64,000 bases of DNA. Source: a bacterium (GTDB taxonomy: Bacteria > UBA8248). Positions 25,389-64,000 of the stretch are shown here, in pieces (position 1 is the stretch's first letter; the number at the start of each line of letters is the position of its first letter). The stretch is from NCBI GenBank assembly GCA_965202625.1, contig CBDBBI010000010.1, forward strand, positions 1,312,001-1,376,000, given 5' to 3'. Below the pieces are notes generated by a model that did not search any database, had not been told where the DNA came from, and was given only the letters and a program-made list of their open reading frames with translations. The translations under genes and the position numbers were made by a program.

Positions 25389-26744
25389 TCACGCCTCGTC
25401 CGCCCCGCCGCGCGCCTGCAGCATGCGCGGGGTTTTTTCCACGCGAACGAGTCCCCCGTCCGCCTCATCCCCTTTCTCCTTCGGCGCGCTCCCGTAGTCG
25501 CTGAACTTTCGCGCGGAGACCATCACTCTCGATTCATAGGAGCCCACTGCCTTGTTGTAGGCGTCAACCGCCCTCCCCAACCCCCGGCCCATGGTGTCGA
25601 AGTGTCCCGCCAGCGTCTTGAGCCGCCCGTAAAGCTCTCCACCGAGCGCGCTCACGGCCTGGGCGCTCTCGGCCACTTTCTCCTGCCGCCAGCCGTATGC
25701 CACCGCGCGCAGAAGGGCGATGAGCGTCGTGGGCGTGGCCAGTATCACCTGCTTGCCCACGCCTTCTTCTATCAGACCGGGGTCCTGCTCGAGCGCCGCG
25801 CTGAAAAGACTCTCTCCGGGCAGGAACATCGCCACGAACTCAGGCGTGGATTCGCACTGATCCCAGTAGGCCTTGGAGCTGAGCCGGCTCATGTGGTCCC
25901 GAATCTGGCGCGCGTGATCTTGGAGGTAATCACGGCGCTTATGCTCATCCTCCGCTTCTATCGAGTTGAGATAGGCCTCAAGCGGGGCCTTGGCGTCCAC
26001 CACGACGTTCTTGCCGCCCGGCAACTTCACGATGAGGTCAGGCCGCAGGCGCGCGTCCTCCGAGGAAAACGTCTGCTGCTCCAGGAAATCGCAATGGTCC
26101 ACCATGCCGGCCATCTCCACTACGCGCCTGAGCTGCATCTCCCCCCAATGGCCGCGCACGCTCGGGGCGCGCAAGGCTTTGACGAGATTTCCCGTCTCCG
26201 ATTGAAGCGCCTTCTGCGCGCCCGCGAGAGATTTCAGATGCTCCGTGATCGCGCCATAGGCCTCTCGCCTGGCTTTCTCCAAACCCTCCGCCTGGTTCCC
26301 TACCTTGTCGAGCGATTCCCGAATGGGTGCGACCAGGCTCTCCACCGCCTTTTGACGCAATTCCAGGTCGCCTCTGGCCTCGCTTTGGAATTTCTCAAGC
26401 GTCTCTTTCGCCAAAACGAGAAAAGAGGAATTGTTGTTCTTGAGAGCGTCCGCGCTCATCGCGCCAAAGCTCTCGCGCATGTCCTCCGCCGCGCGGCGAA
26501 GCAGGTCGATTTTCTCCCCCGCTGATTTCTTCTCGTGTGCCAGATCAGATTCAAGGCGCGCGAGATCCGCGTTGAGGGCCGCGTTTTTCTCTTGCGCATC
26601 GGCGAGAGTGGCCTGGACTTCCGCTTTCTCCTCCTCCGCCCTCGCCAACATTCGGGACAGCCCTGCGGTGCGCGTCCCTGAAGCGCGCCAAACGATGAGG
26701 ATGAGAATGAGAGCAGCGCCCAAAGCGACGAACTCGACTTCCAT
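25389..26744 (-). CDS. rmuC: DNA recombination protein RmuC
   Basis: N-terminal TM and coiled coil; RGHWGEMQL; RPDLIVKLP; VDAKAP; PEFVAMFLPGE; ATPTTLIALL. Confidence 0.95.
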   Translation of the reverse strand: MEVEFVALGAALILILIVWRASGTRTAGLSRMLARAEEEKAEVQATLADAQEKNAALNADLARLESDLAHEKKSAGEKIDLLRRAAEDMRESFGAMSADALKNNNSSFLVLAKETLEKFQSEARGDLELRQKAVESLVAPIRESLDKVGNQAEGLEKARREAYGAITEHLKSLAGAQKALQSETGNLVKALRAPSVRGHWGEMQLRRVVEMAGMVDHCDFLEQQTFSSEDARLRPDLIVKLPGGKNVVVDAKAPLEAYLNSIEAEDEHKRRDYLQDHARQIRDHMSRLSSKAYWDQCESTPEFVAMFLPGESLFSAALEQDPGLIEEGVGKQVILATPTTLIALLRAVAYGWRQEKVAESAQAVSALGGELYGRLKTLAGHFDTMGRGLGRAVDAYNKAVGSYESRVMVSARKFSDYGSAPKEKGDEADGGLVRVEKTPRMLQARGGADEA

Positions 26745-27227: not shown

Positions 27228-27507
27228 GCCGCACTCCATCGTGGCCCCAGGTAAAGACATGATGAGAAAAGAAACGCTATCATACCATTCATTCACGGGC
27301 GTTTCATTCTCTGGGCGTATTCTCGAAAAAACGCTGGCAACAGCCTGAAAGGCGAAGCCCAGCGTTCGCTCCGGAAGAACGTCCTCGAAAACTCTTTTCT
27401 GGCCGAAATCGCATTCCCTCCAACCTCGTTTGGGAATCGGCTCGGTGGATTTGATATTCTCGATTTTCTGGCGTAGTTTTCGCCCTTATCCCCTACCTGA
27501 GGGCAAT

Positions 27508-28971
27508 ATGTTCAAGCGATTTAGAAACCTTGCCCGGGTGAACCCCTTTAAGCCCACGACGGCGATTTTTCCGGGCATCGACGCAGAGCGCATCGCCGCC
27601 GACCTTCGCCTTGAGGCGGAGGGAGAACGGAGGGGCGCGATGGACCAGCCGGATTCCTCAGAGGTGGGATTCGACTTGATCGAACGGAGGATCGTCGATT
27701 GCGTTAAAGAGCTCCGCCGCATGGGCCTTGGACATTTCGACGAGCATGAGGGCGCGTATGCCGACCGCATCGCACGAGCAGACAGTATATCGACGGACAT
27801 GCAAACCGCCACGCGCGACGCCGAAACCGATTTTATGATGGAGATCAACAGGTGGAGGGGCATCCTTGCGAACGAACGCAACGACCTCCAGCTCGTCGAC
27901 GAGGAATTCAAGCACTTCCGCCAGGAAAACCGCCTCAAGCGGACGGCACACGAGGGCGGCGGATTCTCCAAATGGCTCTTCTATTCACTCGGCATCCTGA
28001 TCGTGGAATCGGTGCTGAACGGCGTGTTCTTCGCCAACGCGCACGAACTCGGGTTGATCGGCGGCGTTTTCACCGCCCTCGGCATTTCGGTCATCAACGT
28101 CGGCGTCGCGGCGTGCATGGCATGGACAAGCCGGAATTTCAATCACTTCCGTATCGTCCGAAAACTCGTCGGAACGCTCTCCTTTCTGGCCGCCGTGGCC
28201 TTCGCACCAGTATTCAATCTTTTTGTGGCGCATTTTCGAAACGCCGCCGAAGCGGAAAAACCATGGAGCGAGGCCGCAGGCCATGCCTATCGAAACATCC
28301 TCGCTAATCCACTCGGTCTGGAAAGCATCGACGCGTGGCTTCTCGGAATGCTCGGAATCCTGGCGGCGACCATCTCCGGCTGGAAAACTTACGCCTCGGG
28401 CGACCCCTATCCCGGCTACGGGCGCGTATGGAGAAAAATTCACGACGCGCGGGAAGCCTACGCCCAGAGAAACGAAGAAGCGATTGACACGGTGACGGAG
28501 ACGCGCGACAAGGCGGTGGACGATCTCAAATCGGCAATTGACCACATGAAAGCGCAAATTGCGGACGCCCGCAACGCGGCCAACGGTCTGACCTCCCTTC
28601 GGGGCCAACTCGAACAGTTCCTTGAACAGTGCGACCAGAAAGTGAGCCTGTTGCTGACCACTTACCGGAACGCCAACAAGGGAAAACGCGCGGCGGCACC
28701 CCCGGCGCATTTTTCCAGGGATTTCCTCTTCGAACCATACAAAGCCGGACTATCGCCAGATGCTCAAAATACGCTCAACCAAAAAACGGCAGGGAAACTT
28801 GAAGAGAACATCGCACAAGCGATTGATCGCATCTATGATGCCTGCCAGAAGGCTATCGAATCCTTCAAGCCAATCGACGCCATTGAATCCGGAGCACCCG
28901 CCTTTCCCGATCTCCAGCCCGTTACCGTGACGAACGAGGGAGAAGAGGCGCCAAGCAGGGCGGGAGCTTGA
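27508..28971 (+). CDS. Zorya-like operon gene 1: 4-TM membrane protein with long N- and C-terminal coiled coils (DPYPGY motif); function unknown
   Basis: Four hydrophobic segments in the middle third, flanked by heptad-rich helical regions. Its stop overlaps the next start (TGATG). Confidence 0.75.
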   Translation: MFKRFRNLARVNPFKPTTAIFPGIDAERIAADLRLEAEGERRGAMDQPDSSEVGFDLIERRIVDCVKELRRMGLGHFDEHEGAYADRIARADSISTDMQTATRDAETDFMMEINRWRGILANERNDLQLVDEEFKHFRQENRLKRTAHEGGGFSKWLFYSLGILIVESVLNGVFFANAHELGLIGGVFTALGISVINVGVAACMAWTSRNFNHFRIVRKLVGTLSFLAAVAFAPVFNLFVAHFRNAAEAEKPWSEAAGHAYRNILANPLGLESIDAWLLGMLGILAATISGWKTYASGDPYPGYGRVWRKIHDAREAYAQRNEEAIDTVTETRDKAVDDLKSAIDHMKAQIADARNAANGLTSLRGQLEQFLEQCDQKVSLLLTTYRNANKGKRAAAPPAHFSRDFLFEPYKAGLSPDAQNTLNQKTAGKLEENIAQAIDRIYDACQKAIESFKPIDAIESGAPAFPDLQPVTVTNEGEEAPSRAGA

Positions 28972-29837
28972 TGGCTCGCCGCGGCGCCTCACGCCGGAGA
29001 CGCTCCCGCGCAAGAGCGGGACGCCCAATCCATCCGCTTGTGGGGGGCTTGCTCATCGCGTTTTCGATCCTCCTGCTCATCGGCGGCTTGGTCGCCATCT
29101 GGCCGAAAGAGGGACCCCAAGCCATGCTTGGCGCCTTGTTTAGCCTGTGGAATCCGACAGAACACAACAAGGAAACGCTCTGCCCCAAAACGGGGCCCGA
29201 AGCCGGAATCGTCATCCTGCTCGACTTGACGGATCGGATAGGCGCCACCCAACAGGCGCGGTTGCGTGACCTTCTCGAAAAGAAGATCGCCGACGCGCGC
29301 CAGAACACGCTTATCGCCGTGGGCGCGGTCGGATCCGCACCCGCCGAGCGCGGCGTAGATTTCGCCCTCTGCAAACCCATGGAAGAGAGCGCGGCGAATA
29401 CACTGTATCAAAACCCGCGTCTTGTAGCCGAGTCCTATGAAAAGCGCTTCCAACGTCCACTCAAGGCCAGTCTCGAAAAGATGCTGATCTTCCGAAGCGC
29501 GGAGCGCTCTCCGATCATGGAGTCGCTGCAAGCCGCGCTCGCCTCCACGCCCGGTTTTCTGGACGCCGCATATTCCCGCCGCGTCCTCATCGTCTCGGAC
29601 CTCCTCCAGCATAGCGCGGCTTTCAGCTTCTACCGAGGAGACACCTGGCGAAAATTCCAGCGTTCGCGCAACTTCGCACGACTCGCGCGAAGCCTTCATG
29701 GGGTGGACGTGGAAATTCTGCGTCTGCCGCGTCCCGAAGCGAAGATCGACTCCGCAGAAGTGGAGGATTTCTGGGCGAATTATTTCGATCAAGCGGGCGC
29801 GCGACGCGTTCGCAGCCGGATGCTCGGCGACCTGTGA
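28971..29837 (+). CDS. Zorya-like operon gene 2: single-TM anchored protein with a vWA-like extracytoplasmic domain
   Basis: Arg-rich N-terminus and one TM; VILLDLTD, SPIMESL and VLIVSD resemble the vWA/MIDAS strand pattern; two cysteines. Confidence 0.6.
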   Translation: MARRGASRRRRSRARAGRPIHPLVGGLLIAFSILLLIGGLVAIWPKEGPQAMLGALFSLWNPTEHNKETLCPKTGPEAGIVILLDLTDRIGATQQARLRDLLEKKIADARQNTLIAVGAVGSAPAERGVDFALCKPMEESAANTLYQNPRLVAESYEKRFQRPLKASLEKMLIFRSAERSPIMESLQAALASTPGFLDAAYSRRVLIVSDLLQHSAAFSFYRGDTWRKFQRSRNFARLARSLHGVDVEILRLPRPEAKIDSAEVEDFWANYFDQAGARRVRSRMLGDL

Positions 29838-29841
29838 GTTC

Positions 29842-31041
29842 ATGATGGCGAACAGGATAAAACGCATTTACGACATATCGCCGCGCGATGCGGCGGACAA
29901 ATGGGCGCTTGGCCTCGCCTTCTTCCTGGGCGCGGGCGGCGCCTTCGCGCTCAAGCATTTAGGGGCACCTCCCCTTCTCGTCATGTTCTGGTCCGCATCC
30001 ATTCTTCTGGCATACGTGGCTGTCGCGTGGCTGCTCAAGCGCCTTCAGATTGAGGCGGAGACCATCGGGGACAACTGCTACTACCTCGGCTTCGTCTTCA
30101 CGCTCGCGAGCCTTGCCGGCACGCTCCACCTGCTTGGGTGGACCGAGGGGAAGGCTGACGCGATCCGCGACGTGATCTCCGGCTTTGGCGTCGCGCTCAC
30201 CTCGACCATCCTGGGTATCGTGCTGCGGGTATTGCTCATCCGCATGCGTCCTGACATCGTTGCCCGTGACCGTGAAGCCCGCAGAGAGCTTCATTTCGCG
30301 GTACGCGATTTTCGGGTAAACCTGTCGGCAAGCCTTACCGATCTCAAGCACTTTTCCGTCGAGACCGTGCAAGTCCTCTCCGAGCAGCGCGAGGAAATCC
30401 GCGCGGCGACCCGGGAGACCATCAAGGCGCTGACGGCAAGCATTGAAGAGCAGACGAAAATGGCGGGCGACGCGCTCACCGCCGCAGCCGACAAAACCGC
30501 GAAAGCAATTACCGGCGCGCTGACGAACGCCGCCTCCTCGCATGAGGAAATCCGGGTGACGACCCGGGAGACCACCAAAGCGCTGACGGCAAGCGTTGAA
30601 GAGCAGACGAAAATGGCGGGCGACGCGCTCACCGCCGCGGCCGACAAAACCGCGAAAGCAATTACCGACGCGCTGACGAAAGCCGCCGCCTCGCATGAGG
30701 AGTTTATCGCGCAGGTCGCCGGAATGCGTGAAGCCGTCGCCGACCTTGCGCGAAGGGAGTCCGAAATCCTCAAAACGCTCGTGGAGGACTCGACAAGCGT
30801 CTCCAGAGAGAGCGACAAGATGCAATCCGCGCTCGCGCGGCTCGCCGAGCGTCTTGAGGCGGTGTCGGCCAACCTCGACGCGGCGGCGAGCCGCGTTTCG
30901 GGTGAACTCGAGCCCGCTGCGAACACCATGGTGAGCGCGGTACTCGACGCGGGCGAGGCAATCCGCAAAATGACCGCCCAGGGAGCGCGAAGGGCCCCTT
31001 TCTGGCGACGGCTGCTGCCCCCCTGGCGGCGGCCCCGCTGA
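29842..31041 (+). CDS. Zorya-like operon gene 3: ZorA/MotA/TolQ/ExbB-like membrane subunit with a long helical tail
   Basis: N-terminal TMs with YLGFVFT and GFGVALTSTILG (MotA/TolQ channel signature), then about 260 aa of Ala/Glu/Thr-rich helix containing a tandem repeat. Confidence 0.75.
   Translation: MMANRIKRIYDISPRDAADKWALGLAFFLGAGGAFALKHLGAPPLLVMFWSASILLAYVAVAWLLKRLQIEAETIGDNCYYLGFVFTLASLAGTLHLLGWTEGKADAIRDVISGFGVALTSTILGIVLRVLLIRMRPDIVARDREARRELHFAVRDFRVNLSASLTDLKHFSVETVQVLSEQREEIRAATRETIKALTASIEEQTKMAGDALTAAADKTAKAITGALTNAASSHEEIRVTTRETTKALTASVEEQTKMAGDALTAAADKTAKAITDALTKAAASHEEFIAQVAGMREAVADLARRESEILKTLVEDSTSVSRESDKMQSALARLAERLEAVSANLDAAASRVSGELEPAANTMVSAVLDAGEAIRKMTAQGARRAPFWRRLLPPWRRPR
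30391..30696 (+). repeat. Intragenic tandem repeat, 2 x 153 bp (51 aa)
   Basis: EEIRAATRETIKALTASIEEQTKMAGDALTAAADKTAKAITGALTNAASSH and EEIRVTTRETTKALTASVEEQTKMAGDALTAAADKTAKAITDALTKAAASH; units start at 30391 and 30544. Confidence 0.95.
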
Positions 31042-31058
31042 GGAGGAGAGATCAGGAG

Positions 31059-32867
31059 ATGGCGCGCGATTCGCTTGCAGGTTTCACATCGGAAATCCAC
31101 TACCGGCGCGGCGCGATCATGGGGCTGACCGTCGCCGAAGCCTTCATGCTCGTGGCCTTCGCGCTGTTAATGCTGCTCGTGTTCTGGCGCCATGAAATAG
31201 AGGATGAATACAGGGAGGCCCGAGAACTCACCGAGCGCTTCTCGCCCGAGGAGCGGGCGGCGATAGCGGACCCGACGTCCAGGGACGCTTTGCTCGTATT
31301 GCTCGAACTTCAGGAGAAAAAATTTCACATCCAAAAAACGGCCCAGGCGCTCCTCTCAGGCGCGGTTCCCGTGGCGTCCGTTCGCCTTGCGGAACTGGAA
31401 ACCCGCGCCCGTCTCGTGGAGGAAGGCGTGCTCCGTCAGCTCGTCGAGGCCGCAGCTGTTTTGCCGCCGGAGCACAAAAGGACGCTCTCTCACCTCGTCG
31501 CGCTTCCCGACGCAAAGGAAACGATCGAGAAGATCGCTGCGCTTCAAACCGTGCTTCAAAAACGGCGCGCCGATGAGATCGCGGACGCACTCGCCCTCAA
31601 GGATTCCTCCAAACCGGACGCGCAGAAGATCATGGCATCACGGAAAAAAAAAGACGCCCAACTCCGCCGGCTTTTTGAAAAGGCAGCCCACTTACCGCTG
31701 GAGCAAAGGAGTAAACTTGCGGATTTGACCGAGCGCTTCCAATCCGGAGAACGGAGCGTCGATGAGGTCATGGACGCGCTCGCACTGAGGGATAACCTGG
31801 ATCCTTATGGTGAATACAGCAACGAGGCGCTGAAAAAAATAATTCAAGACCTCCGTGCTCAGGGAACGCGCGCGCGAAGCCGACTCGCTGAGGAGAAACA
31901 GGCGCGGAAGCGCCTCCTCGCCGACCTGCAGACTCAGCTCGGCGCCCAGATCGCTCAGGTTGGCGGGCGCATAGAGGCTACGGGCAAAATCGTAGTGCCC
32001 GATACGGTTGTCTTTACCATGGGGCAGGACGAAATCCGCCCCCGGGCGGCGCGCTTCCTCGGTGATTTCTGCCCACGCTGGCTCGCTACACTCAAAGAGT
32101 CCCGCTCAAAAAACGACATCGCCGAAATTCGGATCGAAGGCCATTCCTCCTCAGAGTGGACCAGCGCGCCCTCCCCGCGAGAGGCCTGGCTCCGGAACCT
32201 CGACCTCTCGCAACGACGCGCGCAATCCGTGCTTGACCGGTGCCTGAACCTCGTCGAACGGAGCACACTCGGCTCATGGGCGCGCGGGAAGCTCACCGCG
32301 GTCGGCTATTCATCCTCGCGGCCCGTTCTTACCGATGGCAGCGAGGACCAGCGCCTCTCGCGGCGCGTTGTTTTCGGAACGGAGTTCAGCCGCGAGAGGC
32401 TGCTCAAAGAGATTCGAGACGACCTCGGAGAAGAAGATCGGGACTACAGGAGACTCGAGGGTGTCGCTCGCGTCAAGGACGCGGACACCATCGAAATTCG
32501 GGGCCGTAGCATCCGCCTTGATGGGATCGATGGGCTCGAAAAAGATCAAATTTGCGAGCGGCCCAACGGAAGTGAATGGCCTTGCGGGCGGGAAGCGAGC
32601 CGCGCTCTTGCCAAACATCTGAACGGACGTTCGGTCGTCTGTGAAAAACTGCGTCTCGACCTCCGACGCTACAACGGACGTTGCCGAATAGGCGATGAGG
32701 ATTTGAACAGATGGGTCGTAAAAGCGGGCTGGGCGTTCGCCTACGTCAAGTATTCTAAGGATTACCTCCAGGAGGAGAAAGCGTCCCGCGCAGCCCGACG
32801 CGGTGCCTGGATGGGCAAGGTCGATCCTCCCTGGGAATGGCGAAAAACAAAGCGCACTGGCACCTAG
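31059..32867 (+). CDS. Zorya-like operon gene 4: ZorB/MotB-like protein (TM, helical stalk, OmpA-like peptidoglycan-binding domain) fused to a C-terminal thermonuclease (SNase) domain
   Basis: TM LTVAEAFMLVAFALLMLLVFW; OmpA-like EIRIEGHSSSEW, NLDLSQRRA, AVGYSSSRP, SRRVVF; SNase VKDADTI, IRLDGIDGLE, GWAFAY, ARRGAW, PWEWR (about 32451-32867); strong RBS. Confidence 0.85.
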   Translation: MARDSLAGFTSEIHYRRGAIMGLTVAEAFMLVAFALLMLLVFWRHEIEDEYREARELTERFSPEERAAIADPTSRDALLVLLELQEKKFHIQKTAQALLSGAVPVASVRLAELETRARLVEEGVLRQLVEAAAVLPPEHKRTLSHLVALPDAKETIEKIAALQTVLQKRRADEIADALALKDSSKPDAQKIMASRKKKDAQLRRLFEKAAHLPLEQRSKLADLTERFQSGERSVDEVMDALALRDNLDPYGEYSNEALKKIIQDLRAQGTRARSRLAEEKQARKRLLADLQTQLGAQIAQVGGRIEATGKIVVPDTVVFTMGQDEIRPRAARFLGDFCPRWLATLKESRSKNDIAEIRIEGHSSSEWTSAPSPREAWLRNLDLSQRRAQSVLDRCLNLVERSTLGSWARGKLTAVGYSSSRPVLTDGSEDQRLSRRVVFGTEFSRERLLKEIRDDLGEEDRDYRRLEGVARVKDADTIEIRGRSIRLDGIDGLEKDQICERPNGSEWPCGREASRALAKHLNGRSVVCEKLRLDLRRYNGRCRIGDEDLNRWVVKAGWAFAYVKYSKDYLQEEKASRAARRGAWMGKVDPPWEWRKTKRTGT

Positions 32868-33108
32868 CCGCTGTTGCGCTCCCCCGGCACAGCGCATCCG
32901 TGCGCGTGGACCTCCAGCCCCGTTCCATGCGCATTCTTTCTGATAGCGGACAGTTTGAAGACTATGCCGGCACCAGCCAGCATCTGGGCAGCGACCTTGA
33001 AAGGCAAGGGGAGACGAAGATTACCGTTCAGTTACGACGAGAATTCGCTTCCGTGAGGAAGGCCGTCAACATCCGTTGATAGAATAGCCCATGTCGCGCC
33101 GTGCGGCG

Positions 33109-33762
33109 TTAGAAGTATGGTCGCGTGGCCATCGCGAGCGACGCCTGGATATGCTCCCAGACGACCTTGGACATCGCTTGTCCAATGAGGTCCATCTTGC
33201 GCACCTGTTCGATGCGCTTGGTGGCGCTTTCCAACTCGCGCTTGGACAGCAACTTGGAGAACAGATCGCAGGCGTCGGCGAGACAGATGATGACGATGTC
33301 TCGCGGGTCGGGTATTTTGTCGCTAAACAGCACTTCCAATATCCTGAGCTTCACCTCGCGCTCGGCCTTGCCGTCGATGGTGGGGTAGCGCCGCGACTTG
33401 AACACCCACAAGAAGCGGTTGTCCTCACAACGCAAGATGCCGCGATCGACCAGACGCGCGAGTGCGATTTCACGAATCTCGCTAGAGTAGTCGGCGGTGT
33501 TCTCGACCCAATAGCGGCTGTCGTGGATCTCGGACGACTCAGAGATGCGGGCGAGGGTCGTATCGAGCAGATCGTCATCAAGCGGCGTCGCGTCAATGGT
33601 GATGAGTTTTTCCAGGTCTGTGTCGATGCGGTTCTCAAGCGCGAGATCCATCAACACCGCGCCCGCAAGCGCAAAGCGCATCGACCATACGGGCACCTGG
33701 ACGAAATTCCCGCTCTCGTCATCCAGAGTCAAGAGCAATATTTCTTCCGCGAACCTCAACAT
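33109..33762 (-). CDS. GPP34 / GOLPH3-Vps74 family protein
   Basis: AEEILLLTLDD; LAGAVLMDLALENRI; LVDRGIL...FLWVF..RYP. Confidence 0.8.
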   Translation of the reverse strand: MLRFAEEILLLTLDDESGNFVQVPVWSMRFALAGAVLMDLALENRIDTDLEKLITIDATPLDDDLLDTTLARISESSEIHDSRYWVENTADYSSEIREIALARLVDRGILRCEDNRFLWVFKSRRYPTIDGKAEREVKLRILEVLFSDKIPDPRDIVIICLADACDLFSKLLSKRELESATKRIEQVRKMDLIGQAMSKVVWEHIQASLAMATRPYF

Positions 33763-59289: not shown

Positions 59290-60684
59290 CTAGGTGCCGT
59301 GGCCCCGTATGCGCAAAAACGTCAGGATCGTGAGAAATATCACCTGCAAGTCCATGTAAAATGAGTAATTCAGAATATAGTACAAATCGTATTCCAGTTT
59401 TGCTTTGCAATCTTCGACCTTATTGACATAGCCCTGCAGAACCTGCGCCCACCCTGTGATGCCTGCGGGAACGATCACCCGGTATTCGTATTCCGGATAA
59501 AGCCTTTTTGCTGTCTTCGTAGCCTCGACATATTCCGTCCTGGGACCGACAAGGCTGATATCTCCCCTGATGACGTTCCAGAGTTGCGGAAACTCATCCA
59601 GATGATACCGGCGAAGCAAGCGCCCCAGAGGGAAAACTCTCGGGTCGCCCTCCTTCGTTACCACCGCGCCCTGTGGCCGCCCCGCCTCCATGCGCATCGT
59701 TCGAAACTTATACGCGGTGAACAATTTTCCATACTGGGTGACCCGGGACTGGGAATAAAAGACCGGGCCCTCGTTCGCAAACTTGATTGCGATAGCGATG
59801 ATGAGGCCGAGGGGGGCGAACAAGACCAAGATCGTGACGCTAGAGACCAAATCAAGCGCGCGTTTGCACAGGTATTGCTTCCGGCTCAGTATCTGCCGCC
59901 CTCTCAAAACGGGGAATTTCTCGCTACTGGAGATGAATTCAAAAAGAATGCGGCCCTCCATAAGAGCGATTATATCCACCAGATCAACACATGACGCGCG
60001 ATGGGCCATACACGCACCGAAAACATGGGCGGCCCCCGGCTTGTTGAGGTAACCCGGATCGGACACCACAAACCGGACGTCGGGCTCGGACGCCAGGAAT
60101 TCTTCAAGTCGCTTGACGTCTTCCTCGTATTCGCCACTCGTCGGAATTTCCGCGACGACCTTCATGTTTCGGTTGTTCTCATCCGACAACTCCCCGGATA
60201 GCCTTTTTTTGACCTCCTCCCCCCCGATGATCACGATTTTGCATTCCAGATTTCCGTTCAAAACGATTTTCTTGAAAACCGCTCGCGTCAAAAGAACGAG
60301 GGAGAAAATAGCGGCATACAGCGAAAGCGAGAACAAAGCACCATATTCGGGCACGAATAAGATGCCGCCCACCCCCTCGCGCAAGATAAAGCTGATCGTT
60401 AAAACCTTGAATATCTGCCAGGAGGACAGGAAGACGTGAACATAATAGCGATAGGCATACAGGCCATACAGATAGAAAAGAAAAAAATGCAGGGCGGGCA
60501 GCAAAACGAGGTCGGGGCCGAAATCCAACAAGCCATCAGCACTCAGACCATTCCATAGAAAGCGCATCAATCGCTCAGAGAGGATAAAGGACAGGAGGTC
60601 GATCATCATAAAAGAACGATCTTGCCGGGATACCGTGGGTTTCGGGTATTTTCTCTTGCGCATGCCGCCGCTTTCGGTGATCAT
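59290..60684 (-). CDS. Polyprenyl-phosphate sugar phosphotransferase (WcaJ/WbaP-like initiating transferase)
   Basis: KRALDL; KFRTM; DEFPQLWNVIRGDISLVGPR; GITGWAQV; DLYYI. Confidence 0.92.
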   Translation of the reverse strand: MITESGGMRKRKYPKPTVSRQDRSFMMIDLLSFILSERLMRFLWNGLSADGLLDFGPDLVLLPALHFFLFYLYGLYAYRYYVHVFLSSWQIFKVLTISFILREGVGGILFVPEYGALFSLSLYAAIFSLVLLTRAVFKKIVLNGNLECKIVIIGGEEVKKRLSGELSDENNRNMKVVAEIPTSGEYEEDVKRLEEFLASEPDVRFVVSDPGYLNKPGAAHVFGACMAHRASCVDLVDIIALMEGRILFEFISSSEKFPVLRGRQILSRKQYLCKRALDLVSSVTILVLFAPLGLIIAIAIKFANEGPVFYSQSRVTQYGKLFTAYKFRTMRMEAGRPQGAVVTKEGDPRVFPLGRLLRRYHLDEFPQLWNVIRGDISLVGPRTEYVEATKTAKRLYPEYEYRVIVPAGITGWAQVLQGYVNKVEDCKAKLEYDLYYILNYSFYMDLQVIFLTILTFLRIRGHGT

Positions 60685-61470
60685 GGAAATTTGCTCTCTC
60701 TATCAGGCCCCGTTTATATTCTATGCTGACGATAAGGAATTTGTATATTCTAGTAGATAAATCCATCCCAGCAAAAACATGAAAAATTATTTCACATCAT
60801 CGCATAACGCCTCATCCTTCCCGCCTCGGGCGCGACTGAAAACCGCCTCTTCTCAATGCCACTCGCATTTTGGGCGTATGGCGCAATAGTGGTCGGTGCG
60901 GCGCGAGGAGCCGTCGCCGCCAACCACGAAGGGTTTATGCGCACGTCGCTCCTGCCCAGAATCTACATTTATCAGATCAGCGGCAAAATGCTCTCCGAAC
61001 GCTCCCTTGGCAGGCCACGAGATCGGCCTTTTCCCGAGATGTTTCAGCAAAAATGAAAAGGAATACGCGAAAAAGGAGAATCTCAAAATTCCGCGCTGGC
61101 GATTGTGGACGAAAGACAAAAATATCCGCATGCCGATTCCGGCCCATTCTTCCTGCTTAAAAAACCTTTGTTGAATCAGGATTTCGGGGGGTGTTATTTT
61201 GGGGGGATTTATAGTGGGAGGTTTTGGGTCTTCGCGCTTGAGAAAAACCGACAAACTCTCGATAGGTTCGGCGGAAGCCTGGGCATGGGCCGGTTGCGTC
61301 GGCATATGCTTTGCAGGCCGGAGCCGAGGAAATATTCCCATTTCCCAAAATTTCCGTTTTATACTGGGATCTCCTGGCGTTTTGCCTGACGGCACAACCG
61401 CGGAGCAGCCGCAAGGTGAACCGAGAACCCAGCCTCAAGAAAGCATAAAGAAAATCAGATGGCGAGATTC

Positions 61471-62928
61471 TCACCCAGAATCTGCCCGGACGGACGCCAT
61501 CGTTATTTCACGATAGATGTAGCGGACAAAATGCAGCAGGATGGCGAACAGCCAGATCGGATAGAACTTCGCCGAAGTGGAAACGGCGATGAACAAGGCG
61601 GGGATGGTGCAGAAAATAACGGCGAAAGGCATGAATAGGGGCAACGAATTCTCATGAGGCCGCAAGAGCATCACCCGAATAAAATATCTCACGGTCAAGA
61701 GGGGTAAAAGCACCCAGATTACGCCTAATATTCCCAAATCCACAATAACGTTCAAGGGAAAGCTGTGCAGCGTACGGAGACGGGTCTCCAGAGGATTCTT
61801 TTGGAACAAATCCATACTCGCCCACCCACTATTTAAGTTGTATTGCGTGATGTCTCCATAAATGTGCGATGAAAAGGTGGATGGCGTATCAGCGGAATAG
61901 CCATAGAAGAATCCCCTCCGGGGTCCGCCCCCCAGGAAAGGCCGTTCAATAAAGATGTCTATCGCGCGCGCGTATTCAAAATTTCTCGATTTCAACCCCC
62001 GGATCAGATTGGGAACGTCAACAAATTCAGGTCTCGCCGCCGTCCCCGCCGTCAGCCCTACAGAAACAAGCAGAACGAAAATCAAGGGCCCCACAAAAAA
62101 GGTATAAAAAGAGGTGATTTTCTTTTTTCTAAAAAGGTGTTTACGGAATCTCAAAAAAAAGATGAAAAGGAGCAGAATGCCCAGAAACAACCCGAGCACC
62201 GGAGAACGTTTCCCCGTTGCGAAAAGCATAAGCATTCCGGAAAGTGACGCGAAAATATAAAAATACCCCCCTCTCCTCAAGAAAAAATAGAAGCCAACGC
62301 CCACCAACAACAGTGCAAGCCTTGCGGGAACAACATGGTGGCTCGTGAACATGCTGATAAACATTCCAGTGCGAGAATCTACGGAATACGTGTTGGGAAT
62401 TCCCAAATAAAAGACCAGAATGCTCTCGACGCCCAAAACCAGGGTGACCCCTAACACGCTTTTCAACGCGCTTTCAAACTCTTCCCAGCCCCACATATTG
62501 CTGTAGATCAAATACCATACGAGCATGCCGTCCACATATGGAACGACATCCCACAGAATCATATACAGGGGCACAGACGTTTTCAATACGTCCCCTGTCA
62601 TATAGGCATAGAGTAATCCGACCCAGAATATCGCCCAAAACCAAAGCACGACGACCCCAAAAGCCAGCGGCGATCTTCTCACCCCAAACCGAATCGCCTC
62701 TATGGCCCATGCGGCGCACAGCAAAACAAAAAGGAGCGCATAAACTTTATACGGACTTACCAAATCGTTTGGAAAATAAGGGACTCTTCTCCAGGGGATG
62801 AGAAAATAAACCGCATGGAGATAGATGACGGTATTCGTGAGCAAGAAGGGAGAAGCTCTCTTTTCACCCAAGACATGGGGAGCGCCTGACTCCCGTTCGT
62901 CAGGCATGGAAGGATGATCCGGCGACAT
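61471..62928 (-). CDS. O-antigen ligase / Wzy polymerase family membrane protein
   Basis: About 11-12 TM; TGKRS; PFLGGG; late HS...DLGILG motif. Confidence 0.75.
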   Translation of the reverse strand: MSPDHPSMPDERESGAPHVLGEKRASPFLLTNTVIYLHAVYFLIPWRRVPYFPNDLVSPYKVYALLFVLLCAAWAIEAIRFGVRRSPLAFGVVVLWFWAIFWVGLLYAYMTGDVLKTSVPLYMILWDVVPYVDGMLVWYLIYSNMWGWEEFESALKSVLGVTLVLGVESILVFYLGIPNTYSVDSRTGMFISMFTSHHVVPARLALLLVGVGFYFFLRRGGYFYIFASLSGMLMLFATGKRSPVLGLFLGILLLFIFFLRFRKHLFRKKKITSFYTFFVGPLIFVLLVSVGLTAGTAARPEFVDVPNLIRGLKSRNFEYARAIDIFIERPFLGGGPRRGFFYGYSADTPSTFSSHIYGDITQYNLNSGWASMDLFQKNPLETRLRTLHSFPLNVIVDLGILGVIWVLLPLLTVRYFIRVMLLRPHENSLPLFMPFAVIFCTIPALFIAVSTSAKFYPIWLFAILLHFVRYIYREITMASVRADSG

Positions 62929-63032
62929 GTATCACTTGTGTAAACGAACTCACGCCATGGTCGCGCGGCAGCTTCACGCGCGGCATTTATACGCTCGCCT
63001 TTGCAAAGAGCCAGATTGCTTCCGCAGGAAAC

Positions 63033-64000
63033 CTATATGCCATCTGGTTCTTTTCCTGGTTCTTTTCTCGCGACAATCGCTTCCCTGAACTCAAGAAATA
63101 AAACCGCGCATACAGCAAGCAACAAACCCGCGAGCAGGCTCAAAGACACCTTGAACTTCAAATTTCTGGGAGTCGGTTTCCGTGGTAAAATCGCACGGCT
63201 CGCGATCTTCAAATTCGTGTTGCCAGACGATACGAACGTCGGCGCCCGGGCGTAGTTCTTGGACGCATCGGCATAGACAGAACGCAATAACTCATATTCA
63301 AACTTTAACTTATTCTGGCGAGCGATGAAATTCTCCTTCTCAGCAACCTTTTGGTCCAGTTGTTGCCTCACATCCCGTAACTTGTCTTGAAACGTTTTCT
63401 TCTCCTCCCTTAAACGCATCACTGACAAAATACCTTTATCCAAAACGGACAATCTCTCAAATAGCGCATTTGTTATATGCACCGTCATACTCGTCAGAAT
63501 CTCCTGCGACTTCGCTTCCGCCTGTTTTGCAAAACGACTCGGGCTTAAACCAATTTTTAGGAACAGATTATTTCTCCGATTCTGCCAAGCCAAGATCCCT
63601 CGTTCTTTCTTGCCAAGTTCAGACTCAATTTCCTTCCTCTGATTCAACATTCGATAGATTTTCATTTGCAGATATCTTACTTCACGCTTCCACAATTTTT
63701 TAGATTGCTCCAACAATTCCGAATCGATTTTTAAGATTCTCTCCCGATACCTGCTCTTTTTCTCCTTTACTCCTTCCAAGCGCAACTTCTCATCCACAAT
63801 CTTGAGTGACGGTGCTTCAAGCAGAGGGATCACCCCGTTCACACCCTCATCTTGTTTCAGGACATTCACTAAAGATTGGCTACTCGGAGAGGATAATATT
63901 TCATTTTGGCTCAACTTATTCGCGTCGTTCATCCCATCGAACCATCGCAATTTTCTTACCGAAACCTGCTCTTCAACATCCAGAATAGGCAAAGCGGCCA
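63033..64000 (-). CDS. Wzz/GumC-like chain-length determinant (5' end lies outside the window)
   Basis: Long coiled coil followed by KIASRAILPRKPTPR and a C-terminal TM. Confidence 0.78.
   Translation of the reverse strand, partial: AALPILDVEEQVSVRKLRWFDGMNDANKLSQNEILSSPSSQSLVNVLKQDEGVNGVIPLLEAPSLKIVDEKLRLEGVKEKKSRYRERILKIDSELLEQSKKLWKREVRYLQMKIYRMLNQRKEIESELGKKERGILAWQNRRNNLFLKIGLSPSRFAKQAEAKSQEILTSMTVHITNALFERLSVLDKGILSVMRLREEKKTFQDKLRDVRQQLDQKVAEKENFIARQNKLKFEYELLRSVYADASKNYARAPTFVSSGNTNLKIASRAILPRKPTPRNLKFKVSLSLLAGLLLAVCAVLFLEFREAIVARKEPGKEPDGI

Follow-up and report, generated by a model that had tools for sequence, protein, structure and literature searches.

We examined a 64,000-nucleotide stretch of a bacterial genome of the lineage UBA8248 (GenBank assembly GCA_965202625.1, contig CBDBBI010000010.1, positions 1,312,001 to 1,376,000 of the forward strand), which we call the window and number from its first letter. 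It carries four tightly packed genes, g1 to g4, all on the forward strand, and the last of them joins a ZorB2-type peptidoglycan-binding domain (PGBD) to a thermonuclease (SNase) domain. Gene g1 (27505-28971, with TTG 27430 as a possible alternative start) encodes a 488-aa membrane protein, g2 (28968-29837) a 289-aa protein with a predicted periplasmic location and von Willebrand factor A (vWA) fold, g3 (29842-31041) a 399-aa divergent MotA/ExbB-like subunit, and g4 (31059-32867, stop codon included) a 602-aa B-type subunit fusion protein in a single uninterrupted open reading frame (ORF). The start of g2 overlaps the stop of g1 by 4 nt, and gaps of 4 and 17 nt separate g2 from g3 and g3 from g4. 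RefSeq annotates the products as three ‘hypothetical proteins’ and one ‘OmpA family protein’. A first-pass annotation of the window had placed the fusion at 32007-32867; those coordinates hold for the PGBD and SNase parts but not for the whole gene, whose start is 31059.

A locus survey that took one genome per species gave 154 relatives, and among the best 79 of the 154 loci, g1-g2-g3-g4 are collinear in 66, with median gaps of -3, 0, and 8 nt. The remaining 13 comprise one complete cassette with merged ORF calls, four cut by contig ends, and eight without the partner genes despite room upstream. The 70 loci that hold both g1 and g4 show no further conserved neighbour gene, and a promoter and terminator scan gave no signal above shuffled expectation. 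Gene g4 closes a self-contained, conserved, and previously undescribed four-gene cassette. Searches of the full-text literature on Zorya and ZorB, periplasmic nucleases, and MotB did not turn up its architecture (supplementary homologue tables fall outside that coverage), and in a survey of MotAB relatives the word ‘nuclease’ occurs 0 times (PMC12505986).

Architecture, catalytic residues, and compartment of g4

The g4 protein has one transmembrane (TM) helix near its N terminus (aa 23-41; 31125-31181), the only one in a hydropathy scan. A helical and charged linker of about 230 residues (aa 44-275; 31188-31883) leads to the PGBD (aa 276-455; 31884-32423), which is delimited by PADLOC and by a PDB profile match. 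There follow an acidic junction of 15 poorly conserved residues (aa 456-470; 32424-32468), LGEEDRDYRRLEGVA, and the SNase domain (aa 471-597; 32469-32849), placed by Pfam and by profile alignment. Pfam OmpA (PF00691) matches aa 319-432 (E 8.5e-8, 32.9 bits, cut-off 27.2), Pfam SNase (PF00565) matches aa 485-584 (E 3.9e-7, 30.9 bits, cut-off 21), and the PADLOC ZorB2 model matches aa 280-452 (E 1.6e-34).

The first-pass annotation favoured a real OmpA-SNase fusion, and this is confirmed. The junction DNA (32340-32520) contains neither a stop nor a frame change. A search with g4 in a collection of 5.8 billion proteins found 144 homologues, and among the best 120 of these, the OmpA part is universal, the N-terminal part is found in 112, and an SNase part follows the OmpA part in 71. 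Contigs from sequencing runs X1 and X4, which are possibly the source of the assembly, cover 31000-32950 with zero differences, and contigs of X5, a run from a different study, span the junction at 32316-32652 without an indel. (Coverage by runs X5 and X6 is piecemeal, and the gaps in it carry no meaning.) The same fusion in so many homologues, the agreement of contigs from two studies, and the conserved residues described below leave a negligible chance that the fusion is an artefact of assembly, frameshift, or annotation, or a gene in decay. Such an account could draw on one relative with an in-frame stop ahead of a truncated SNase, and on the closest same-genus relative, whose gene ends after the PGBD.

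Within the TM helix, Glu27 (codon 31137-31139) stands at the place of the conserved Asp of MotB and ZorB, in the motif GLTVAEAF; at least 90% of the sequences in alignment A1 have this Glu. Of 199 family proteins scanned, 161 show the strict form of the TM motif, and in every one of these the residue is Glu, never Asp; many of the other 38 have a relaxed GLTAAEAF or come without the N terminus. The linker is the least conserved part of g4 (26-63% identity in seven comparisons, vs 53-76% for the PGBD). Its length is variable, the OmpA part starting anywhere from residue 118 to residue 684 in the listed homologues that have the N terminus. One X5 contig is missing 198 nt at 31565-31764 and has 9 other letters instead, an in-frame loss of 63 linker codons, so linker length differs between strains as well. 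The acidic junction is 26-60% identical in seven comparisons.

A profile of the PGBD built from 60 homologues matches PDB chain 8vvi_A, a type II ZorB, at E 9e-32, and MotS and MotB chains at E 1e-8 to 1e-7. Entry 8VVI is the type II ZorAB of Sulfuricurvum kujiense (PMC11890865). Residues N380, L383, and R387 (NxxLxxxR), together with C338 and C395, are invariant in the alignment. The spacing of the first three equals that of N152, L155, and R159, which PMC11946911 gives as the peptidoglycan-binding residues of E. coli ZorB; their equivalence comes from this spacing and the 8vvi alignment, not from a structure.

In the SNase domain, a profile alignment to staphylococcal nuclease (1snd_A, E 3.9e-7) equates D474, D476, and T477 of DADT with D19, D21, and T22, R486, D491, and E494 of RLDGIDGLE with R35, D40, and E43, and R537 of DLRR with R87. 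In staphylococcal numbering we take the Ca2+ ligands and catalytic residues to be D21, D40, the T41 backbone, E43, R35, and R87. A family profile is required for this match, which for staphylococcal nuclease chains reaches E 3.9e-7 and weaker; a single-sequence phmmer search of the domain against PDB returned nothing relevant. A stand-alone SNase with a leader and the canonical DRYGR, encoded at locus L076, aligns with the domain at 33% identity (BLASTP, E 2e-25) and sets R537 on the same Arg. Among 60 homologues, D476, R486, and the four Cys (499, 509, 528, and 542) are invariant, and at least 90% of the sequences retain D474, T477, D491, E494, and R537. The motifs listed in the first-pass annotation are all there: the linker KEIRDDLGEEDRDYRR, DADT, RLDGIDGLE, Cys 499/509/528/542, and PWEWR. 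That annotation had also allowed that the domain might be catalytically dead. With the equivalents of D19, D21, R35, D40, E43, and R87 retained and that of Y85 alone lost, this worry does not apply. The domain is moreover conserved to the same degree as the PGBD in all seven comparisons (73-77% vs 74-76% identity in near relatives, 57-60% vs 53-58% in distant ones). The SNase domain carries a complete catalytic set, and we predict that it is a Ca2+-dependent nuclease.

The first-pass annotation also placed everything after the TM helix in the periplasm, and several observations support this too. The TM helix has a net charge of +1 before it and -3 after it (hydropathy and charge scan), the PGBD is homologous to that of ZorB and MotB, and all six Cys of g4 (338, 395, 499, 509, 528, and 542) lie after the helix and are invariant in 60 homologues. 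The tails that replace the SNase in other family members are in keeping with this placement. They are an Endonuclease I domain in the metagenomic homologue P0094 (E 2.2e-29) and a GmrSD_C domain, a His-Me nuclease, in P0091, P0092, and P0119 (E about 1e-13); four conserved Cys are present in 7/7 GmrSD_C tails inspected. In loci L073 and L076, a tail-less g4 is followed by a separate SNase gene on the same strand, whose product has a hydrophobic leader as judged by eye. The short N terminus of g4 would accordingly be cytoplasmic, and all that follows the TM helix periplasmic, with two disulfides probable in the SNase domain. We are highly confident that g4 is a real, conserved, extracytoplasmic nuclease fusion.

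The stand-alone genes next to tail-less cassettes encode four-Cys SNases of 226-240 aa and are located in L073 (9061-9783) and L076 (8924-9628) and, on the opposite strand, in L052 (7227-7931) and L064 (11097-11777). The products of all four genes combine a hydrophobic N-terminal leader with an extra C-terminal domain that contains Cys. The g4 SNase is 33% identical to such stand-alone alphaproteobacterial SNases, which have leaders and the same four Cys, and stand-alone thermonuclease genes of this type occur in >200 plasmid records. The tails share their folds, catalytic residues, and extracytoplasmic character with staphylococcal nuclease and its family (PF00565) and with Endonuclease I (PF04231). 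Unlike the free exported nucleases, the g4 SNase is the C-terminal module of a B-type subunit anchored in membrane and wall.

Partner proteins and the relation to Zorya

The g3 protein consists of a membrane part (aa 1-135) and a helical cytoplasmic tail of about 260 residues. The membrane part carries the invariant motifs GDNxYYLGF and GFGxAL..T..G, and when the g3 proteins of the family are cut down to their N-terminal parts, 33 of 36 match Pfam MotA_ExbB at E<=0.1, the best at 6.9e-6. PADLOC ZorA models match g3 at E 2e-6 to 1e-2, mostly across the tail. For its part, g4 resembles MotB, PomB, and TolR/ExbD in having one N-terminal TM helix with a membrane carboxylate and an OmpA-type periplasmic peptidoglycan-binding domain. 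It differs from them in its Glu, its far longer and variable linker, and its catalytic C-terminal domain, and their plug motif is not recognised in it. Set against the 5:2 ion-driven motors (MotAB, ExbBD, TolQR, and ZorAB), the cassette has its A and B genes adjacent in 66 of the 79 loci, and its carboxylate is Glu. We consider it likely that g3 and g4 make up a stator-type A/B pair. A predicted complex of four g3 chains (aa 1-160) and two g4 chains (aa 1-70) scored 0.14 against a mark of 0.32, which, in a run without controls, is evidence neither way.

Some results tell against this assignment and against kinship with Zorya. The Pfam MotA_ExbB match of g3 (PF01618, aa 73-130, E 0.0012) scores 19 bits, under the cut-off of 22.9. 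A profile of its membrane part matched no MotA or ZorA chain in PDB, and g3 has no significant pairwise similarity to the ZorA2 of its own genome. The curated NCBIfam models score far below threshold, at 89.5 bits vs a cut-off of 400 for ZorB2 and 16.9 vs 190 for ZorA_1, and neither g1 nor g2 matches a PADLOC model at E<=0.01.

Two further g3 searches were set aside. A full-length profile against PDB was dominated by coiled-coil composition, with apolipoproteins ranked above ZorA chains. An iterated search reached ORFs beside canonical ZorB genes in same-genus genomes; these were not taken as evidence of homology, because, with loci so short, they contain nothing but tail sequence. The g3 tail of the window also contains a 153-bp tandem duplication (30391-30701; Tandem Repeats Finder, 2.0 copies, 93% matches, score 552). 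It keeps the frame, makes the tail 51 residues longer, can be seen in the translated sequence, and looks recent. The integrity of the ZorA tail reportedly matters for Zorya function.

The first two proteins of the cassette are further removed from known families. The AlphaFold2 model of g1 (pLDDT 89.6) has four TM helices and, on the cytoplasmic side, two helices about 85-90 residues long (58-142 and 305-394). No Pfam, PADLOC, or NCBIfam family was found for g1, Foldseek gave 0 PDB matches to the model at E<=0.001, and the ESM Atlas returned unnamed clusters only. The g2 protein starts with a segment of net charge +9 and one TM helix (aa 24-42), and its C72 and C135 are invariant (alignment A3). 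It has no Pfam match. Its AlphaFold2 model (pLDDT 89.9) has 117 Foldseek matches in PDB at E<=0.001, with vWA domains on top at target-normalised TM-scores of only 0.4-0.55, and the ESM Atlas likewise gives a vWA lead at 0.88. Residues D86, T88, S181, and D211, which resemble a metal-ion-dependent adhesion site (MIDAS), are conserved, and the full DxSxS motif is not. Profiles of g1 and g2 found nothing among PDB sequences.

The same genome encodes a canonical type II Zorya (L091 6551-9664, about 334 kb downstream of the window), which served as an internal control. Its ZorA2, ZorB2, and ZorE2 score E 1.4e-85, 2.6e-92, and 4.4e-56. The resemblance of g4 to this ZorB2 is confined to the PGBD, where the two are 43% identical (E 3e-35); the ZorB2 has Asp at the TM position (SIADVMS) and is without Cys. 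In PMC11946911, the TM Asp of ZorB (Asp26 in E. coli ZorB) is called universally conserved, and the PGBD is described as following directly on the TM helix, with no linker. No ZorC, ZorD, ZorE, ZorF, or ZorG is present in the cassette. Since the Asp, the direct TM-PGBD fusion, and the ZorC/D/E/F/G partners are all missing, the cassette is not Zorya as defined. The first-pass annotation had read g4 as ZorB-like. That reading stands for the ZorB2-type PGBD but not for membership in Zorya, where partners, Asp, direct fusion, and curated scores all fail.

What the cassette shares with type II Zorya is a ZorB2-type PGBD, a single-TM B subunit with a carboxylate, an upstream MotA/ExbB-like partner with a long helical cytoplasmic tail, and the inclusion of a nuclease in the system. 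What sets it apart is the addition of a four-TM coiled-coil protein and a periplasmic vWA protein ahead of the A and B genes, which come last, a TM carboxylate that is Glu rather than Asp, and a linker of about 230 residues in place of the direct fusion. The nuclease is placed differently as well: that of Zorya is soluble and cytoplasmic, whereas here it is fused to the periplasmic side of the B subunit. From these sequence comparisons, we regard the cassette as distinct from canonical Zorya and related to it through the PGBD of the B subunit and the general logic of A/B stators.

An exchangeable tail on a patchily distributed cassette

We collected 67 complete cassettes with search patterns in the TM and PGBD parts of g4, and their tail counts are therefore unbiased toward SNase. 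The tail is an SNase in 26 of them (two of a divergent subtype) and GmrSD_C in six; one has 58 residues near a contig end, and 34 have no tail. A PGBD tree (FastTree, 175 rows) requires at least 29 switches of tail type, and well-supported branches force at least 12 switches in the SNase label; this tree is a quick build without bootstraps and includes proteins found by an SNase-containing query. The clade that holds the g4 of the window (12 members, support 97) contains three other SNase-bearing proteins and eight tail-less ones, which form a supported sub-clade. The only same-genus relative (G010) belongs to that sub-clade, and its gene ends directly after the PGBD, among different neighbours.

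In locus L022 (9156-9800), an in-frame stop lies between the PGBD and a truncated SNase remnant without the Arg equivalent to R87, and this nuclease tail appears to be decaying. The family also includes orphans. Four of the eight partnerless loci (L016 8061-9416, L021 and L032 7872-9236, and L054 7779-9350) encode linker-PGBD-nuclease proteins whose N terminus is either different or absent. They carry SNase or GmrSD_C tails and come without the Glu-bearing TM helix and without g1-g3; in L021 and L032, a different TM segment serves as anchor, and transposase genes lie close by.

The C-terminal slot is thus modular, and the nuclease in it is an arm that can be left out or exchanged. Because half of the complete cassettes (34/67) and eight close relatives are tail-less, it is dispensable for the core function, and the system must have some output besides it. 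One could go further and suppose that the core acts without any nuclease, by blocking entry, by sensing envelope damage, or by depolarising the membrane through a channel, with the SNase as a minor clean-up module that is easily lost. The tail-less cassettes, the tail-less proteins inside the clade of the window, and the decay in L022 would all suit this, and the HXS system shows a periplasmic entry block without cutting (PMC13128918). Yet where the SNase is present, it is conserved like the PGBD, catalytic residues and Cys included, three unrelated nuclease folds occupy the same slot, and stand-alone secreted SNases sit beside some of the tail-less cassettes. We consider it quite improbable that the nuclease counts for so little.

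The distribution of the cassette is patchy. It occurs in one of 22 other same-genus genomes, where its neighbours differ from those in the window, and whatever else matched among 40 relatives was either a canonical ZorB-like PGBD or a stand-alone SNase. Most loci are alphaproteobacterial (Paracoccaceae, Roseobacteraceae, and Rhodospirillales), with single gammaproteobacterial and Bryobacterales metagenome-assembled genomes. Tail-less copies are found on six Paracoccus plasmids or chromids. None of the plasmid records searched covers at least 80% of g4, and a phage collection holds no family member, giving three partial matches to the PGBD or SNase parts only. Flank ORFs were scanned as well, without a baseline: of 280 candidates at 61 loci, we took the 140 that lie nearest, which belong to 49 loci. 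They include three integrases, five transposase hits, three AAA_21 proteins, and two type I restriction-modification pairs. The patchy distribution, the plasmid and chromid copies, and the mobile-element and restriction-modification genes in the flanks suggest that the cassette is accessory in character.

These same data bear on a housekeeping role, in which a wall-tethered DNase would digest DNA for nutrition (phosphate, nucleotides) or would limit or process DNA taken up by competence or brought by gene transfer agents. SNase and Endonuclease I are classic examples of non-specific nucleases that act outside the cytoplasm, and such a role would suit marine Alphaproteobacteria and sponge-associated bacteria. 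The family is indeed concentrated in Paracoccaceae, Roseobacteraceae, and other Alphaproteobacteria, many flank genes are metabolic, and the orphans L016, L021, L032, and L054 come without motor genes. In addition, DNA delivered by the gene transfer agent RcGTA requires ComEC, ComF, and ComM for cell entry (PMC10883770). A housekeeping enzyme fits poorly, however, with a presence in 1/22 same-genus genomes at a different location and with repeated swapping of the nuclease fold. Nor would scavenging need a four-gene membrane machine, and here the nuclease comes coupled with both a PGBD of the ZorB2 type and a MotA/ExbB-like subunit. We judge a housekeeping role unlikely.

A proposed periplasmic arm of envelope immunity

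The reading we favor, to which we give roughly even odds, is that the cassette is a Zorya-related envelope defence system with an exchangeable periplasmic nuclease arm, in which the compartment serves as the criterion of self and non-self. By analogy with ZorAB and MotAB, g3 and g4 would form a proton-conducting, stator-like complex that is related to ZorAB and anchored to the cell wall. The long cytoplasmic coiled coil of g1 and the periplasmic vWA surface of g2 suggest sensing or scaffolding. Held at the wall, the nuclease would cut DNA exposed in the periplasm, either when the core system stalls its entry or when the DNA pauses there naturally. Candidate targets are phage DNA that is stalled or leaks at the inner membrane, gene transfer agent DNA, and transforming DNA. 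DNA delivered by RcGTA waits in the periplasm, and the reported breakdown of superinfecting T-even phage DNA by periplasmic endonuclease I is an older precedent. As the first-pass annotation proposed, the nuclease may cut phage or conjugative DNA in transit. We infer in this model the g3-g4 complex, the flow of ions through it, its topology, the activity of the nuclease, and the role in defence.

Such a location would separate self from non-self without an immunity protein, because the host chromosome never enters the periplasm. The SNase could then be constitutively active and need no inhibitor, and no inhibitor or immunity gene is encoded in the cassette. The core system would also work without the nuclease, which could be exchanged as an accessory arm.

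An immunity gene would be equally superfluous in abortive infection, if the nuclease were stored in the periplasm apart from the chromosome and, on activation of the motor, reached the cytoplasm and nucleoid to kill the infected cell. A route for such a transfer exists, in that nuclease colicins enter the cytoplasm from the periplasm aided by Tol and Ton motors. Against this, the nuclease of g4 is covalently tied to a peptidoglycan-binding domain, its invariant Cys make disulfides probable, and Pfam, PADLOC, and NCBIfam recognise no translocation or processing component in the cassette. We consider a suicidal function very improbable.

Several observations weigh against the defence model, beside the low scores of g3 and g4 and the missing PADLOC matches of g1 and g2 given above. 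Y85 of staphylococcal nuclease is lost from the SNase, where the aligned residue is Leu. Half of the complete cassettes carry no nuclease tail, and neither do the eight proteins of a supported sub-clade close to the g4 of the window. Most of the 140 flank ORFs scanned (without a baseline) are metabolic, and the flanks of the cassette in the window itself look like housekeeping genes (RmuC and GPP34-like, with a glycosyltransferase and TRAP transporter genes identified by eye). Finally, phage DNA usually crosses the periplasm within a protein channel (PMC13128918), and because of this passage, access of the nuclease to phage DNA is not obvious.

Two recently described systems offer precedents. 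SNIPE is an inner-membrane GIY-YIG nuclease that cleaves phage DNA at injection, and its DUF4041 and nuclease domains face the cytoplasm in a PhoA-LacZ-alpha assay (PMC13190303). On that description, SNIPE shares with the cassette an envelope-fixed nuclease, a discrimination of self and non-self that would go by location instead of DNA sequence or modification, and variable non-catalytic regions. SNIPE is, however, one protein on the cytoplasmic face, whereas the predicted place of the g4 nuclease is in the periplasm, where a peptidoglycan-binding domain tethers it, and its gene is one of four in a cassette that includes a channel-type subunit. The nuclease folds also differ, being SNase, His-Me, or Endonuclease I in the cassette family rather than GIY-YIG. 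The second system is HXS, whose effector HxsA is a peptidoglycan-binding periplasmic protein proposed to block the entry of phage DNA, not to cut it; HxsA binds DNA, contains HxS repeats, and owes its maturation to radical-SAM enzymes (PMC13128918). Compared by such description only, g4 is like HxsA in having a peptidoglycan-binding domain, in being periplasmic, and in that it would act on incoming DNA at entry. It is unlike HxsA, the proposed entry blocker, in that it bears a nuclease domain.

ZorD and ZorE, which are all of the characterised Zorya nucleases, and SNIPE act on the cytoplasm side. If the defence model is true, DNA-targeting immunity would be shifted one compartment outward and would do without an immunity protein. 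What would be new here is a stator gene set, related to Zorya, with an effector in a new compartment; for the defence model as a whole, the chances seem to us about balanced. More tentatively, and with somewhat less than even confidence, we suggest that the cassette represents a fourth kind of Zorya-related immunity, in which interchangeable periplasmic nucleases are mounted on a stator B subunit, and a vWA sensor and its coiled-coil partner detect or stall entry. The family bears on how accessible incoming phage, gene transfer agent, and transforming DNA is in the periplasm, and on how ZorAB-type stators are wired to their effectors. It provides a stator-type B subunit family with Glu where the Asp has been described as universally conserved. 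It also provides a natural set of variants, comprising three nuclease folds, tail-less and split forms, and orphan PGBD-nuclease forms.

The cassette lies in the window between an RmuC gene (25389-26744, reverse strand) upstream and a GPP34 (Golgi phosphoprotein 3) family gene (33109-33762, reverse strand, E 1.2e-45) directly downstream. Toward the end of the window, at 59290-64000, G+C content drops from about 0.60 to 0.47-0.50. The genes of this region are for polysaccharide synthesis, including a Bac_transf sugar transferase and a Wzy_C-type ligase or polymerase, with GT4 glycosyltransferases just upstream, and the region is a typical low-GC surface-polysaccharide cluster.

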